From: Bacillota bacterium
Lineage (GTDB): Bacteria > Bacillota_I > Bacilli_A > RF39 > UBA660
Assembly: GCA_023430885.1 (NCBI GenBank)
Contig: JAEYYH010000026.1
Coordinates: 19,599-83,598, forward strand
Direction of reading: 5' to 3'
DNA: 64,000 nt
The position numbers were made by a program, and so were the translations under genes. The notes under the pieces are model-generated. The model did not search any database, was not told the DNA's origin, and was given only the letters and a program-made list of their open reading frames with translations. Positions 34,965-62,369 of this stretch are shown piece by piece (positions within the stretch are counted from its first letter, which is position 1; each line of letters starts with the position of its first letter).

Positions 34965-36068
34965 TTGTTTAATATTTCACTTAAGATACTAGAAAAAATA
35001 GAACAAACCGGATTTGAAGCATATATAGTTGGTGGATTTGCAAGAGATAATTACATAGGACGTAATAGTACTGATGTAGATATATGTACAAATGCAACTC
35101 CAAAAGAACTAAAAAATATTTTTCAAGGAAGTATGCTTCCAAAAGAACAATATGGTTCAGTTGCCGTCATATATAAGAAAATTAGATTTGATATAACAAC
35201 TTATCGTAAAGATATAAAATATCAGAATAATAGATTACCTGTTGAAATAAAATACATAAATAATTTAGAGGATGATTTGAAAAGAAGAGACTTTACTATG
35301 AATACACTTTGTATTGATAAAGAAGGAAATTATATAGACCTATTAAATGCTAGAGCTGATATTGATAAAAAGATTATAAAAACTGTAGGAAATGCTAAAG
35401 AAAAACTAAATGAAGATTCACTTAGAATACTTCGTGCCATTAGATTTGCAACTATACTTGATTTTGAATTAGATGAAGAATTAAAGCAAGCTATAAAAGA
35501 ATATGGCTATTTATTAAAGAAACTATCTTATTTTAGAAAAAAGGAAGAATTAGACAAGATTTTTAGCAGTATTAATGTTAAACGTGGTATAAAGTTATTA
35601 CTTGAATTTGATCTTGATAAGTATTTAGATTTAAACAATTTAGATAAAATAATTATCACATCATCGCCTTTAGCAATATGGGCACAGTTGGATGTTTTAA
35701 ATACATATAGTTTTTCAAATATTGAAAAATGTTCAATAGAAACAATAAATATATTGAAAACAAATATGTCGTTTGATAACTACGAGCTATATACTTATGG
35801 ATTATATTTGACTTCTTTAGTTGCAGAAATTAATAATATTGATAAAACTTTATTAACAAAAAGGTATATGAGTCTTCCTATAAAAAACAAAAGAGATATA
35901 GTGATTGATGGTGCTGAAATATGTAATGTTCTTAATATAAAACCATCAAAGATTATAAAAGAAATAATAGAGGATTTAGAGAAGAAAATCATTCATGGGC
36001 AACTAGAAAATGACAAAAATCTTATAATTAATTATATTAAAAAGAATTATTCTGGAAGAGTTGAATAA
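34965..36068 (+). CDS. cca: CCA-adding tRNA nucleotidyltransferase; TTG start after RBS GAGGAGGG (the track's 34950 start lies inside the hup terminator)
   Basis: GGFARD motif, nucleotidyltransferase head plus HD-less Firmicute-type tail. Confidence 0.8.
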   Translation: MFNISLKILEKIEQTGFEAYIVGGFARDNYIGRNSTDVDICTNATPKELKNIFQGSMLPKEQYGSVAVIYKKIRFDITTYRKDIKYQNNRLPVEIKYINNLEDDLKRRDFTMNTLCIDKEGNYIDLLNARADIDKKIIKTVGNAKEKLNEDSLRILRAIRFATILDFELDEELKQAIKEYGYLLKKLSYFRKKEELDKIFSSINVKRGIKLLLEFDLDKYLDLNNLDKIIITSSPLAIWAQLDVLNTYSFSNIEKCSIETINILKTNMSFDNYELYTYGLYLTSLVAEINNIDKTLLTKRYMSLPIKNKRDIVIDGAEICNVLNIKPSKIIKEIIEDLEKKIIHGQLENDKNLIINYIKKNYSGRVE

Positions 36069-36113
36069 TTCTTTTTTAATTGATATAATTTATATATGAT
36101 AGGATGCGATAGT

Positions 36114-38729
36114 ATGAATAAAAAGAAAGGTTTTACATTGGTAGAAATACTGGCTGTTGTAATAATACTTGGGGTTATAAGTATTATTGTTTATCCAGTT
36201 CTTAATAAAGTCTTAAAAGATAATAGAAAAAGAGCATTTGAGGCTAGTCTAAATGCAGTAGTTAGAGCAGCTGAATTATATAAAACAGATAATAATAATG
36301 TTTTGGGTATATTTGATTACGATGACGAAAATATTGATATAAGTAATCTAGGTAAATGGCAAGCAGGAACTTTAACTGATTCTGTTGATACTGATGGAAA
36401 TACAAAAATATATCTTACGGGATTTTATGATGGTGAATTTTGTGCCACTGGTTATGAAGGTAACTTCACAATAATTGAAGGAAAGTGTGTGGAAACACCT
36501 GAATTATGTTTCATTATGAAAAATAACGAAATTATACAATATGAATTTGACTATAGTGCATGTCCAACGAATGTTAATATTCCTACTAGCATTGATGGTC
36601 AGGATGTTTTATATATAGGCGAAGGTGTTTTTGAAAGTTCACCTATAGCTTCTGTAATTATTCCTAATAGTATTAAAGAAATTAGAGATAATGCTTTTAA
36701 TGATAGTGCCTTGACATCACTTGATTTGACTAATGCTACATCTCTTCAAATAATTGGTTCTGGGGCATTTGAATATACACACTTAACTAATGTAGATTTT
36801 ACCAATCTTACAAGTTTAGTAGAAATAAAAGGTGCGGCTTTTGAATATTCTGGACTAACAGGAACTTTAGATTTAACAAACTCTACAAATTTAACAAGGA
36901 TATGGCCATATTCATTTGAAGAAAATCAAATATCTTCAGTTAAATTAAGTGGTTTAACTCATCTTGAAAGAATTGGAGAATATGCTTTTGAAGAAAATAA
37001 TATAACAGGAGTTTTAGAATTAACAAACATGCCAGCATTAGTATCATTAGATGATGGTGCTTTTAGCAATAATAATATAACAAGTATTAATCTAACAAGC
37101 ACTAATGTTCTAGAAAGCATTGGTCAAAATGCTTTTGCATATAATGATATTACTAATATTAATGTAGATACAATTAATAATATAATGTGGTTAGGAGCAT
37201 ATGCTTTTGCATATAATGATTTAACTAGTTTCAGTTTAACGTTATTTCCAAATATCGATTATGTTTCAGCTGGTGTAGTTAATAATAATCAGCTATCTAA
37301 TAGTGAAGCCTTCATATATAATGTAGTTAATGGAACAATAGAGCCTAGTATTTTGATATCATACGGTGGTGCAAGTAGAAGTAATATTGTAATACCTAGC
37401 ACTGTAGTATCAATAGGTGAGAATACTTTTTATAGTCAGGGTATAACAAGTGTTGACTTTAGTCAGGCTACTGGATTAACAAATATTGATTATTATGCAT
37501 TCGCTTCCAATAATTTAACTACAATAACATTACCTAGTACGTTAATAGAAATAGGTCAATATGCATTTTCTGAAAATCAACTAGTTAGTATTACTATTCC
37601 AGAAAATACAACAACAATAGATGATTATGCATTTTACTCTAACAGATTAACTTCTGTAACATTACCCAGCACATTATTAGGAATAGGACAATATGCATTT
37701 GCTTACAATCAATTAGCTAATATTACTATTCCAGGTAATACAACAACAATAGAAAACTATGCATTTAAAAGTAATGCTACTTGGCAAACAATAACAATCT
37801 TATCTAATGGGGTAAATAGTACATTGAGATTTAATTATGTTTGGGCTGATATTGGTTGGCCAATGGAAAAAATTCCTACTGTAGAAGTATTATCAACTCT
37901 TTCTACAGCAGCCCAAAATAATTTTGATTTTCAAAATTTTACATATTATAAAGTTGCTGTACCAACAAGTGGGCAATACAAATTTGAGGTATGGGGAGCC
38001 CAAGGAGGTTGTAACAGTGGTGGCAAAGGTGGATATTCTACCGGCTTAGTACAATTAAATAGTGGAGATACCTTATATGTTTATGTTGGTGGTAAAGGTT
38101 TGTGTTCAAGCGAAACTAGTTCTAGTCTAATGGGGGGATTTAATGGTGGCGGATTTGCTTATAAAAATAGTTATACCGCTGGTTCTGGAGGCGGTGCTAC
38201 CGACATAAGAGTAACAACTAATTCATTATATGCCCGTGTGATTGTTGCCGGTGGCGGCGGTGGTTATAGTTCTGTTGGCGGTTATACTGGCGGTTTTGGT
38301 GGAGGTTTAGTAGGTGGTTCAACATATAACAATGCTACATTTTCAGCTGGTGGTGGAACTCAAATAAATGGTGGGGTAAATGGCTGTTATTCTAATGGAA
38401 ATGGTAAATTTGGATTTGGTGGTTCATACGGTTCTGCTTGTGGTTCACTTTGGGGATATCCAATTTCTGGTGGTGGATCAGGTTGGTATGGTGGTGGAAG
38501 CACCAGCATAAGTGCCGGCGGTGGTTCTGGTTGGATTTACACATCAACAGACTTTACAAATTGGCAATCAGGAAATGCAACAGATGCAGCACAATGGTTA
38601 TTAAATAGTTCATATTATTTATTAAGTGCACAAACAATTGCGGGTAATCTTGCAATTACTAATCCAGATGGTAGCAGTGTTACAGGTCATGCAGGTAATG
38701 GTTACGCCAGAATAACATTTATAGCTTAA
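36114..38729 (+). CDS. Modular type IV pilin: prepilin leader plus pilin domain, BspA-type leucine-rich repeats, C-terminal Gly-rich domain
   Basis: MNKKKG|FTLVEIL class III signal. Pilin D-region FCATGYEGNFTIIEGKC. More than 15 LRR_5-like repeats (L..IG..AF....LT.I). C-terminal 250 aa is Gly-rich and ends GNGYARITFIA. Confidence 0.65.
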   Translation: MNKKKGFTLVEILAVVIILGVISIIVYPVLNKVLKDNRKRAFEASLNAVVRAAELYKTDNNNVLGIFDYDDENIDISNLGKWQAGTLTDSVDTDGNTKIYLTGFYDGEFCATGYEGNFTIIEGKCVETPELCFIMKNNEIIQYEFDYSACPTNVNIPTSIDGQDVLYIGEGVFESSPIASVIIPNSIKEIRDNAFNDSALTSLDLTNATSLQIIGSGAFEYTHLTNVDFTNLTSLVEIKGAAFEYSGLTGTLDLTNSTNLTRIWPYSFEENQISSVKLSGLTHLERIGEYAFEENNITGVLELTNMPALVSLDDGAFSNNNITSINLTSTNVLESIGQNAFAYNDITNINVDTINNIMWLGAYAFAYNDLTSFSLTLFPNIDYVSAGVVNNNQLSNSEAFIYNVVNGTIEPSILISYGGASRSNIVIPSTVVSIGENTFYSQGITSVDFSQATGLTNIDYYAFASNNLTTITLPSTLIEIGQYAFSENQLVSITIPENTTTIDDYAFYSNRLTSVTLPSTLLGIGQYAFAYNQLANITIPGNTTTIENYAFKSNATWQTITILSNGVNSTLRFNYVWADIGWPMEKIPTVEVLSTLSTAAQNNFDFQNFTYYKVAVPTSGQYKFEVWGAQGGCNSGGKGGYSTGLVQLNSGDTLYVYVGGKGLCSSETSSSLMGGFNGGGFAYKNSYTAGSGGGATDIRVTTNSLYARVIVAGGGGGYSSVGGYTGGFGGGLVGGSTYNNATFSAGGGTQINGGVNGCYSNGNGKFGFGGSYGSACGSLWGYPISGGGSGWYGGGSTSISAGGGSGWIYTSTDFTNWQSGNATDAAQWLLNSSYYLLSAQTIAGNLAITNPDGSSVTGHAGNGYARITFIA

Positions 38730-38730
38730 A

Positions 38731-38751
38731 AAGGTCTATGACCTTTTTTTC
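38731..38751 (+). terminator. Rho-independent terminator (AAAGGTCTATGACCTTTTTTT)
   Basis: Hairpin plus T-run directly after the stop codon. Confidence 0.5.
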
Positions 38752-38796
38752 TTGAAAAATAAAGAAATAAAAGATATAATGTATAAAGGTGATTTT

Positions 38797-46160: not shown

Positions 46161-46559
46161 ATGAAAATAATTAATAAAGAGTCAGTAACTTACAAAAAAG
46201 GTTTTACGCTAATAGAATTAATTGCTGTAATTTTATTAATAGGCATAATTTCATTAATAACAGTGCCAACAGTATCAAATATAATACAAGAATCAAAAGA
46301 AAAAGCTTTTAAAGCACAAGCAATATATATATTTGAAGCTACGATGATATATTTATATGATAATGATTATGCTGATATACCATCAGAGGGACTTGATGTC
46401 ACTATAATAAATAGTATAGATCCAAATCCTTTTATAACCGGATATGTATTTAGAAATGCCAGTGGTAAATTTGAAATCGCTTATGTAAGTGATGGAAATT
46501 ATTGTGCAAATGGTGAAAAAAATAATTTAGTAATAACAAGAGGAACTTGTGATGTATAA
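46161..46559 (+). CDS. Minimal type IV (pseudo)pilin with prepilin cleavage/methylation signal
   Basis: YKKG|FTLIELIAVILLIGIISLITVP. D-region DGNYCANGEKNNLVITRGTC. Confidence 0.7.
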   Translation: MKIINKESVTYKKGFTLIELIAVILLIGIISLITVPTVSNIIQESKEKAFKAQAIYIFEATMIYLYDNDYADIPSEGLDVTIINSIDPNPFITGYVFRNASGKFEIAYVSDGNYCANGEKNNLVITRGTCDV

Positions 46560-48808: not shown

Positions 48809-49291
48809 ATGCAAAAGTTAGATTTAAATAAAAAAAAATATGAAGTAGAAATACCTAAAGAAGAAGTTACAAAAAAGAAACCCGTATTGTATAACGTTAT
48901 TTTGATTATCGTTTTAGTTACTCTTATTTGTTTGTTTACATTTTTATTTAAAAAATATACAAACAAAGAGGCTTTAGCTACTCTTGAAAGTAGAGTTAAC
49001 ATGACTATAAATTTAGCACGTGAGGTAGTAGATGATGAAAGTTATACAGAAGATTATCTGTTAATAAAGTTCCCTGATACTGAAGAAATTATTACTAAAG
49101 ATGGGAAAATGAATTTTAATAATAAAGAATTAGAAGAATTTTCAAATGGCTATATTATTGTTTATAAAGATAGTTCAATAGCTTTTAAGCTAAGTGATGG
49201 TGAATACTGTGCTTCTAAATCATATAATGATGCGTCATATAAGTTATTTATATTTGGTAATTGTTCTAATTATGACGTTGAATATAAATAG
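48809..49291 (+). CDS. Membrane-anchored pilin-domain-like protein (no prepilin signal), paralog 1
   Basis: Cytoplasmic K-rich N-terminus, one TM. C-terminal DGEYCASKSYNDASYKLFIFGNC matches the pilin D-region pattern of the 46161 protein. Confidence 0.5.
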   Translation: MQKLDLNKKKYEVEIPKEEVTKKKPVLYNVILIIVLVTLICLFTFLFKKYTNKEALATLESRVNMTINLAREVVDDESYTEDYLLIKFPDTEEIITKDGKMNFNNKELEEFSNGYIIVYKDSSIAFKLSDGEYCASKSYNDASYKLFIFGNCSNYDVEYK

Positions 49292-49305
49292 GGTGATTTT
49301 GTAAT

Positions 49306-49797
49306 ATGAAAACACACGAAACAACAATTCATGTTTATGATTATGGAAAGAAAAAGCGCAAACATCATAATGCAAAACTAAAAATATCAAATATCTTAAA
49401 AATAGTATTACCGTTACTAGTACTTATATTTGCAGCATTTTGTATATATAAATATTCTAATAAAGATAAAATTAAAGAAATAGATAAAAAAATTGCTATG
49501 TCAATTGAATTAATGCAAAATGTTGTAAAAGATAAAAGCTTTGATGGCGATTATTTATTAGTAACATTTCCAGATAATTCAAAAGTTGTATCAAACGACG
49601 GTTATATAATTAATAATATAGGTTCTTCATATAAAGAGTTTGATGCAGGTTACATTATATTATATAAAGATGGAACATATAAATTCGAATTACAAGATAC
49701 TGGATATTGTGCTACAAAAGATATTTATGATAAAAAATATCAGTTATTGATATTTAAAAAATGTTCAAGTAAAGAAGTTGATTACTTAAAAAAATAA
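49306..49797 (+). CDS. Membrane-anchored pilin-domain-like protein, paralog 2 (tandem duplicate)
   Basis: Same architecture. DTGYCATKDIYDKKYQLLIFKKC. Shares LL(I/V)(K/T)FPD and GYII(V/L)YKD with paralog 1. Confidence 0.5.
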   Translation: MKTHETTIHVYDYGKKKRKHHNAKLKISNILKIVLPLLVLIFAAFCIYKYSNKDKIKEIDKKIAMSIELMQNVVKDKSFDGDYLLVTFPDNSKVVSNDGYIINNIGSSYKEFDAGYIILYKDGTYKFELQDTGYCATKDIYDKKYQLLIFKKCSSKEVDYLKK

Positions 49798-60320: not shown

Positions 60321-62369
60321 ATGAAAAATAAAAAAGGATTCACGCTTGTAGAGTTAATTGCAATAATAATTGTTATTGGAATAATTATTGGAATTATAGC
60401 GCCTACTGCAATTAAACTTATAGAGAAATCCAAGGTTAATTCTTTTAGAGAAGGTTTAAGAAGTATAATACGATCAGCGGAAATTTATATGGAAGAAAAT
60501 GATTTGAAAACTCTTCCAGAAGATGGAATATATTTACAAGATAACGATCTTGATATTGATTATGCGGATGGTTATAGTGGAATAATAAAATATATAAATG
60601 GAGAAATTGTATTACAAAATATAGGTAACGGGACATATTGTGGTAGTGGCAGTAAAGATACTTTATCTGTATCTGGTTTTACTGAAGATTGTGTAGTGGT
60701 CAAACCTGAGCCTCAGTGCTACTTGATGGGAACCACTGATACTACAGGTGATACTATCATTGGGTACGATTATGAAAAAGAAGATTGTAGTTCTATGGAA
60801 TTATCAATTCCAGCGACAGTTAATGAAGTGCCTGTTAAATATATTGCAGATGGAGCATTTTTAGATTCTTATGAATATGTACTTGGTGTAGGTTACTATG
60901 ACACTACTCCATTAGGTGGTCCAGGTCTTTTTCCAGTAATTGAACTTTTAGATAATTTATCTTATATGGGTGTGACTCCTTTTGAAACAATCTATATGAA
61001 TACTCTTCCGCAAATGCCAAAATTCTGTCTTACAACTTCTATGGAAGAAGCAACGGTTCCAATAAATTATATGATGTCATCAGGTGGATACGTTTTTTGC
61101 AATTTTGAAATGTATGATGATCTTTCTTCTTATCAAGCACATGGTATTGGTATAACAAAAGTAGATTTTAGTAATGCAACTAATTTGGTTAAAATTGGTA
61201 ATTCAGCTTTTTCTTATAATTTTATAACAGGGGCAATGGATTTAAGTGGTGCCACTAAATTAACAGAAATAGCTTCAAATGCCTTTGGTTATAATCAAAT
61301 AGAATCTATAAAGTTACCTAGTAGTCTTGTTACAATAGGAAGTTCTGCTTTTGTAGGTAATCAAATACAAACAATATCAATACCTTCTTCAGTTACAACA
61401 ATTGGCGATTATGCTTTTGAAGATAATAATTGGAATAGCGTTACTATTGGATCAAACTCAACTAATAAAGAAGATAGATTTAATGATAGTTGGGAAGTTA
61501 TCGGCTGGCCTTTGGAAATAATGCCAGAAGAATCTATTTCTGATCCTATTGATTATACATTAACGACGTCAACAAACACATTTGATTATATAAAAGGTTA
61601 TTATATTGTAAATGTTCAAACAAGTGGTAATTATAAATTAGAAGTTTGGGGCGGTTCCGGTTCAAATGGTGCTTCAAATGATCCTTCTGCATATGCATAT
61701 CCAAGTTATAGCGGTGGCTATACATCAGGTACAGTATATCTTTCTGCAGGAACAAAAATATATGTATACGTTGGTGGCGCAGGAAATGATATAAAAGGTG
61801 GATATAATGGAGGTGGAAACTCCATTTCACCAGATGGCGATTGTGAAGACAATGGCGCTGGCGGTGGCGCTACTGACATAAGATTAGTTGGTGGAGATTG
61901 GAATGCTCAATCAAGTTTATTGTCAAGGATTATTGTGGCTGGCGGTGGCGGCGGCGGTAGAGTAACCGCGCCATCTACAAATGCTGGTACTGAAATAGGA
62001 TTGGCTGGATCACAAACACAATCTGGAGTGGCAACGGATACTGAAAATTCTTGGAATGATAGTATAACTTGCGATATTGCTGGAGGTTTTGGTTTTGGTG
62101 GCTCAGAAAATTCGTCAGATGATAATCCCGGCGGTGGCGGAGGCTGGTATGGTGGATGTTCAGGCTATGATGCTATGGGTGGTGGTGGTTCTAACTACGC
62201 ACTTACTAGCGAATCAGTAAAACCATCAGGATATACCCCAACTAGTACTTACTATTTGTCTAACATTGTATCAACAGCTGGTAATGCTTCAATGCCAACT
62301 TATGATGGTCTTAGTACAATGACTGGAAATATAGGCAATGGCTATGCCAAAATAACTTATATTGGATAA
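60321..62369 (+). CDS. Modular type IV pilin paralog: prepilin leader plus pilin domain, short LRR block, C-terminal Gly-rich domain
   Basis: MKNKKG|FTLVELIAIIIVIGI. D-region GNGTYCGSGSKDTLSVSGFTEDC. LRR_5-type repeats. Gly-rich C-terminus with GGGATDIRL, RIIVAGGGGGG, ending GNGYAKITYIG. Confidence 0.65.
   Translation: MKNKKGFTLVELIAIIIVIGIIIGIIAPTAIKLIEKSKVNSFREGLRSIIRSAEIYMEENDLKTLPEDGIYLQDNDLDIDYADGYSGIIKYINGEIVLQNIGNGTYCGSGSKDTLSVSGFTEDCVVVKPEPQCYLMGTTDTTGDTIIGYDYEKEDCSSMELSIPATVNEVPVKYIADGAFLDSYEYVLGVGYYDTTPLGGPGLFPVIELLDNLSYMGVTPFETIYMNTLPQMPKFCLTTSMEEATVPINYMMSSGGYVFCNFEMYDDLSSYQAHGIGITKVDFSNATNLVKIGNSAFSYNFITGAMDLSGATKLTEIASNAFGYNQIESIKLPSSLVTIGSSAFVGNQIQTISIPSSVTTIGDYAFEDNNWNSVTIGSNSTNKEDRFNDSWEVIGWPLEIMPEESISDPIDYTLTTSTNTFDYIKGYYIVNVQTSGNYKLEVWGGSGSNGASNDPSAYAYPSYSGGYTSGTVYLSAGTKIYVYVGGAGNDIKGGYNGGGNSISPDGDCEDNGAGGGATDIRLVGGDWNAQSSLLSRIIVAGGGGGGRVTAPSTNAGTEIGLAGSQTQSGVATDTENSWNDSITCDIAGGFGFGGSENSSDDNPGGGGGWYGGCSGYDAMGGGGSNYALTSESVKPSGYTPTSTYYLSNIVSTAGNASMPTYDGLSTMTGNIGNGYAKITYIG

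Follow-up and report, generated by a model that had tools for sequence, protein, structure and literature searches.

Two genes in the window (the whole stretch of DNA analysed, 64 kb in length, from a gut-type Firmicute) encode modular proteins that are probably best explained as three-module type IV pilins, each with a true glycine-rich domain (GRD) of the family PF12810 ALK_LTK_GRD, formerly Gly_rich, as its C-terminal head. These GRDs are truly related to the domain with which the human ALK receptor binds its ligand. Each protein is most likely a minor type IV pilin, in which the GRD would be held out as a binding head at the distal end. They are a new example of a known family and not a new kind of thing, because bacterial surface proteins and phage tail fibres commonly carry the same module. 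The features of pilin 1, pilin 2, and a third prepilin gene of the window are listed below.

36061..36089, forward strand: promoter-like site TTGAAT-17 nt-TATAAT, TG-extended, from a consensus scan; overlaps the end of cca
8 nt before the ATG at 36114, forward strand: ribosome-binding site AGGATG, from the sequence
36114..38729, forward strand: modular pilin 1 (871 aa and a stop codon), with N_methyl, LRR_5, and PF12810 in Pfam
36114..36203, forward strand: class III (prepilin) signal of pilin 1 (PF07963, TIGR02532)
36114..36488, forward strand: pilin module of pilin 1, from the full-length AlphaFold model and alignment with the window's two other prepilins
36501..37862, forward strand: BspA-type LRR solenoid of pilin 1 (PF13306 LRR_5, E 4.9e-77, four stretches)
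37920..38726, forward strand: GRD1, ALK/LTK-type (predicted TNF-like beta-sandwich plus glycine-rich lattice)
38729..38750, forward strand: terminator-like hairpin AAAAGGTC-tat-GACCTTTTTTT, directly after the stop codon, from the sequence
38752-38780: strong promoter-like site for dus, the next gene (promoter scan score 11/12)
46161..46559, forward strand: third prepilin, of ordinary size, 132 aa (motif scan; PF07963, E 5e-6)
60321..62369, forward strand: modular pilin 2, 682 aa; architecture of pilin 1 with a shorter LRR region
61575..62366, forward strand: GRD2, in pilin 2 (Pfam envelope 61623-62363)

The original prediction had read six motifs at the C-terminus of both proteins, and all six were found, in the same order, in pilin 1 and pilin 2. 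They are given here with their residue numbers in the 877-aa open reading frame of pilin 1 (36096-38729), each followed by its counterpart in pilin 2.

KFEVWGAQG, 629-637; in pilin 2, KLEVWGGSG
GGYSTGLVQLNSGDTLYVYVGGKG, 645-668; in pilin 2, GGYTSGTVYLSAGTKIYVYVGGAG
GGGATDIR, 698-705; in pilin 2, GGGATDIR
RVIVAGGGGG, 714-723; in pilin 2, RIIVAGGGGG
GSGWYGG, 794-800; in pilin 2, GGGWYGG
GNGYARITFI, 867-876; in pilin 2, GNGYAKITYI

The boundaries first proposed for GRD1, 37950-38729, proved correct (Pfam envelope 37965-38723), and the family consensus places the start one strand further upstream, at NFDFQNF (nt 37920). GRD1 matches PF12810 with an E of 7.4e-45 and 154.3 bits (cut-off 24.5) over profile positions 6-243 of 243, and GRD2 with an E of 1.1e-37 and 130.8 bits over positions 7-243. 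The two domains are 45% identical to each other, and pilin-borne copies of the GRD measure 259-275 residues. Against a bacterial GRD profile made from 49 bacterial homologs, window sequences excluded, GRD1 scores 265.8 bits and GRD2 165.3 bits, whereas the best of 300 shuffled controls per domain reach -24.6 and -13.6 bits, respectively. The match to PF12810 is beyond chance or composition.

Both profile and fold comparisons support the homology to the ALK/LTK glycine-rich domain that had been claimed from the motifs. A search of the PDB with the purely bacterial profile gave ALK chains only as top matches (E 0.04-0.08), with the alignment co-linear over ~190 positions; directly against ALK, the E of this profile is only 0.04 after HMMER bias correction. 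A comparison by hhalign with a human ALK fragment gave a probability of 93.3% and an E of 2.6e-7. The same fragment scores 13.0 bits against the bacterial profile, versus a mean of -20.9 (sd 5.0, maximum 9.8) for its shuffles. The six motifs align column for column with ALK YGAAGGKG, GGGGGGAT, IAAGGGGR, FGGGGG, GGGGGG, and YIGGNA. In a construct numbered from residue 648, these ALK segments are the polyglycine-II (PGII) helices 740-747, 816-824, 841-848, 922-927, 931-935, and 938-943 (PMC13243192). The ALK link is visible to profiles and fold comparison only, and a single-sequence phmmer search of the PDB with the GRD gave no match.

The AlphaFold model of the GRD is confident (pLDDT 93.6, pTM 0.92) and shows neither disorder nor a collagen-like form. 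The best 21 Foldseek matches of this model in the PDB are all TNF-like/glycine-rich domains of ALK/LTK, and the first match after them has an E > 1. DSSP assigns no regular secondary structure to the glycine motif segments of the model. The predicted fold is best explained as a TNF-like beta-sandwich whose long Gly-rich loops would be packed into a rigid lattice of polyglycine-II type.

Compared with the solved structures of ALK/LTK and C. elegans SCD-2 (PDB 7LS0, 7LRZ, 7N00, 7NX1, and 7LIR), the bacterial GRD is ~50 residues shorter than the ALK constructs. In ALK/LTK the domain belongs to a receptor tyrosine kinase, whereas the window GRDs are fused to a pilin module and LRRs, and an ALKAL-type cytokine ligand is not to be expected for them. 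In Pfam, neither pilin has a kinase, EGF-like, MAM, or LDLa domain; their other domains are only N_methyl and LRR. The pilins share the domain family of ALK but are not members of the receptor family. Automatic naming of phage and bacterial PF12810 proteins as 'receptor protein-tyrosine kinase' is wrong.

Pilin 1 consists, in order, of a prepilin signal, a pilin fold, a BspA-type LRR region, and the GRD. The start at 36114 is preferred over the first ATG of the open reading frame list (36096) because of the homologs and the ribosome-binding site. The signal region, MNKKKG|FTLVEILAVVIILGVISIIV, has the attributes of a class III signal: a short basic leader ending in Gly, MNKKKG, is followed by FTLVE, with Phe+1 and Glu+5, and by the hydrophobic N-terminal half of alpha1. 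Cleavage is predicted after Gly6. Both signal models recognise the region (PF07963, 29.9 bits with a cut-off of 21.2; TIGR02532, 26.7 bits with a cut-off of 16.3), and in phmmer alignments residue 7 falls on residue 1 of mature GspG, PilA, and PilE1 (PDB chains). In the full-length AlphaFold model (pLDDT 86.4), alpha1 spans residues 9-59 (51 residues) and is followed by strands 84-91, 97-105, 109-114, and 117-122, which form a beta-sheet of four strands (84-122) with Cys110...Cys125 as the closing pair. The module as modelled has the long alpha1 helix and antiparallel beta-sheet of type IV pilins. The LRR solenoid is modelled with pLDDT > 90 over most of the region, and it ends in a conserved cap, W(A/E)xIGWP, common to pilin 1 and pilin 2. 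The prepilin N-terminus and BspA-type LRRs of the original prediction are present in both proteins (pilin 2: N_methyl, E 2.4e-5; LRR_5, E 2.7e-17; PF12810, E 1.1e-37). The pilin module of the third prepilin resembles those of both modular pilins in alignment, and this protein may be an ordinary subunit of the filament, possibly the major one.

Based on these features, it appears that the two proteins could work as follows. The class III signal at the N-terminus would insert the protein into the membrane, prepilin peptidase would cut after Gly6, and the small pilin module would dock into a type IV filament. Docking would most likely take place at the tip or in the priming complex because of the bulk of the protein. 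The BspA-type LRR solenoid of ~450 residues would serve as a stalk, with the GRD as the distal head.

It is also conceivable, though we judge it unlikely, that the prepilin-like N-terminus is only a membrane anchor or secretion signal and that the protein is a surface LRR-GRD adhesin which is never polymerised. In agreement with this, genes for a pilus assembly ATPase, a platform protein, or a prepilin peptidase are found neither in the 64-kb window, which holds all three prepilin genes, nor within 10 kb of any homolog examined, and the filament in this organism is therefore a proposal. Moreover, many related GRD proteins of uncultured Bacilli, ~660 aa in length, carry a plain N-terminal TM anchor, and two pilin-module-like proteins of the window (48809-49797) are TM-anchored without the GFTLxE motif. 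However, all three window prepilins have an intact G-1/F+1/E+5 signature, which is kept in their orthologs and distant homologs, and the predicted pilin fold is complete. Glu5 of type IV pilins is a hallmark of filament assembly. Orphan pilin genes distant from the machinery are common in Firmicutes.

The reading as modular type IV pilins also has precedents among adhesins, such as PilB of S. sanguinis (PMC8179133). In S. sanguinis the grafted module is vWA in PilB and a lectin in PilC (Raynaud et al. 2021, PMC8179133); like the window pilins, these proteins have a class III signal, a small pilin module, and a bulky C-terminal functional module. A modular pilin joins a pilin module to domains that are not pilus-specific, and this is found here in the combination of N_methyl, LRR_5, and PF12810. 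Dataset S1 of PMC8179133 contains 3 pilin-PF12810 proteins and 27 pilin-BspA-LRR proteins, and the three-module pilin-LRR-PF12810 arrangement is absent from that table. The expectation that a bacterial pilin with this fold would be notable was overstated, as the family is abundant and the fusion to a pilin already tabulated (PMC8179133). A difference in context is that the window pilin genes are orphans among housekeeping genes and not part of a pil locus.

The parallel drawn to Trichomonas holds. A published description covers 12 TvBspA-GRD proteins (PMC2843621), which like the window pilins combine a GRD and BspA-type LRRs within one surface protein, but in reverse order: their GRD precedes the LRRs, and that of the window pilins follows them. 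The TvBspA-GRD proteins are also eukaryotic and have a signal peptide or TM domain in place of a prepilin signal. GRD homologs in C. difficile prophages, Flavobacteria, and Bacillus were noted by Noel et al. 2010 (PMC2843621), and it is through the C. difficile phage homologs that the TvBspA GRD can be inferred to belong to PF12810.

Close relatives show how the head varies at conserved chromosomal slots. The ortholog of pilin 1 in L079 has 871 aa, is 91.6% identical, and keeps its synteny; orthologs were reached through P0121, P0126, and P0127, and an exact look-up of the window protein gave no record. At the slot cca-[pilin]-dus, the GRD is present in L079 and in L084, where the pilin has a global identity of 49.8%. 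In L080 the same slot has HYR/Ig-like modules instead, and the neighbour genes are mostly ~88-100% identical. The ortholog of pilin 2 is 90% identical. At the slot prmC-[pilin2]-dnaD, one relative has a 423-aa pilin with LRR and without a GRD, and another has a version of 702 aa that includes the GRD. The head is a cassette that can be exchanged: the slots of close relatives keep the pilin and LRR modules and carry an Ig-like head or none. A scan of contigs for relatives gave a best-segment identity of <=57%, with full-length matches at ~46%. The homologs are labelled 'Bacilli bacterium', and together with SpoIVA, PolC, and a G+C content of 29% this label points to a spore-forming, low-G+C Bacillota member. 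In the GRD-less relative, the junction between LRR and GRD was considered as the site of a sharp recombination breakpoint; this was rejected, as identity falls gradually through the LRR, from 90% to 34%, ahead of the change of head. At each of the two loci, close relatives can dispense with the GRD.

The dN/dS of pilin 1 is 0.21, versus 0.03-0.07 in the flanking genes, and the gene is therefore under purifying selection. By module, the LRR is the fastest-evolving part (0.30), and the GRD has a value of 0.15, with which positive selection on the GRD is unsupported.

The PF12810 family is very large (~18,000 cluster representatives) and is abundant in bacteria and phages. Among the GRD proteins of bacteria, most are not pilins but either giant surface proteins with multiple GRDs or proteins with a TM anchor, so the pilin context says little about the binding target of the GRD. 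Phage relatives include cyanophage Pam3 gp24 (7YPX), mycobacteriophage Bxb1 gp33 (9D93), CDMH1 gp30, and the siphovirus protein A0A8S5URB1. In phages the carrier is the virion tail, often trimeric and assembled with the help of a chaperone, whereas the window GRDs have a type IV pilin-like carrier. The solved phage domains are smaller than the window GRDs (118-124 residues aligned). The gene for CDMH1 gp30 of C. difficile (PF12810, E 2.6e-49) lies directly after the baseplate and tail-fibre genes. The gut siphovirus protein A0A8S5URB1 shares 44% identity with GRD1 over its full length, with a TM of 0.80 to the model; it is as close to GRD1 as the paralogous GRD2 is (45%). A tblastn search of 50,697 phage genomes with the GRD gave no match, probably because of the low-complexity filter; a query with the phage protein P0064 did reach phages of C. 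difficile, Vibrio, and Synechococcus, via unmasked 60-aa stretches only.

By analogy with these systems, the GRD of the window pilins would be a ligand-binding head. The TNF-like, glycine-rich tip of Pam3 gp24 has been described as the part of the fibre that recognises the receptor (PMC9608196), and phage 'brush' domains are described as anti-receptors (PMC13243795). In gp38 of Salmonella phage S16, a PGII sandwich presents variable receptor-binding loops on its lattice (PMC9608196, PMC13243192); the GRD is predicted to share such a glycine-rich PGII lattice. In the literature, we found no bacterial ALK-type GRD that is characterised structurally or functionally, or that has a ligand or a solved structure, and no discussion of a pilin-borne glycine-rich domain.

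Alternatively, the GRD could be a rigid structural or oligomerisation module, such as a TNF-like trimeriser or a cap stabilising the LRR end, rather than a ligand-binding head. The TNF-like sandwich does trimerise in TNF ligands and Pam3 gp24, the glycine core and strands are the most conserved positions of the family alignment, and evolution is slower in the GRD than in the LRR (dN/dS 0.15 vs 0.30). Nevertheless, this explanation is improbable: in ALK/LTK the GRD is the very unit that binds the ligand, the phage homologs sit at distal tips, the variability of the family is gathered in the loop segments between glycine runs, the LRR has its own conserved cap ahead of the GRD, and orthologs function with another head or none.

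Because the GRD lies beside holin genes in C. difficile prophages, Noel et al. (2010) speculated that it might act as a cytotoxic or bacteriolytic effector (PMC2843621), which is very improbable. In CDMH1 the GRD gene likewise sits between the tail-fibre and holin genes, but such a position is normal for distal tail-fibre and receptor-binding genes, the solved phage homologs are virion tail components, and Pfam detected no catalytic or pore-forming domain in pilin 1 or CDMH1 gp30.

That the PF12810 match is a compositional artefact of a low-complexity, disordered, or collagen-like Gly-rich tail, as the Gly content (25.9% in the GRD versus 6.3% in the remainder of pilin 1), the empty single-sequence searches of the PDB (phmmer) and phage genomes (tblastn), and the large HMMER bias terms might suggest, is already refuted by the confident AlphaFold model and the shuffle controls.

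The reading as type IV pilins with a GRD head can be placed in a wider scheme, which we regard as possible but doubtful. Pilus tips and phage tail-fibre tips might share one exchangeable TNF-like/PGII receptor-binding cassette that moves between phages and host adhesins; the two pilin loci might be hot spots at which, from one close relative to another, the head is gained, swapped for an Ig-like one, or lost; and the metazoan ALK/LTK domain might derive from a prokaryotic or viral adhesin module. If this is true, the specificity of pili would be retargeted much as phages retarget their host range. Public databases already contain the family, the fold, and the pilin fusion, and current knowledge is not overturned. 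A small and well-predicted pilin-borne GRD would be a tractable model for the folding of PGII lattices and for what they bind, and the window offers a concrete case of head-module exchange (GRD, Ig-like, none) at conserved slots in close relatives. Such exchange supports the 'grafted module' view of functional diversification among type IV filaments.

The pilin 1 gene has its own promoter-like and terminator-like sites. The count of promoter-like sites in the region equals the shuffle expectation, and the pilin 1 site is a consensus match only. The hairpin after pilin 1 is weak, with an 8-bp A/T-rich stem, and the automatic terminator scan gave no call for it. The window has a G+C content of 29% and encodes SpoIVA and PolC.

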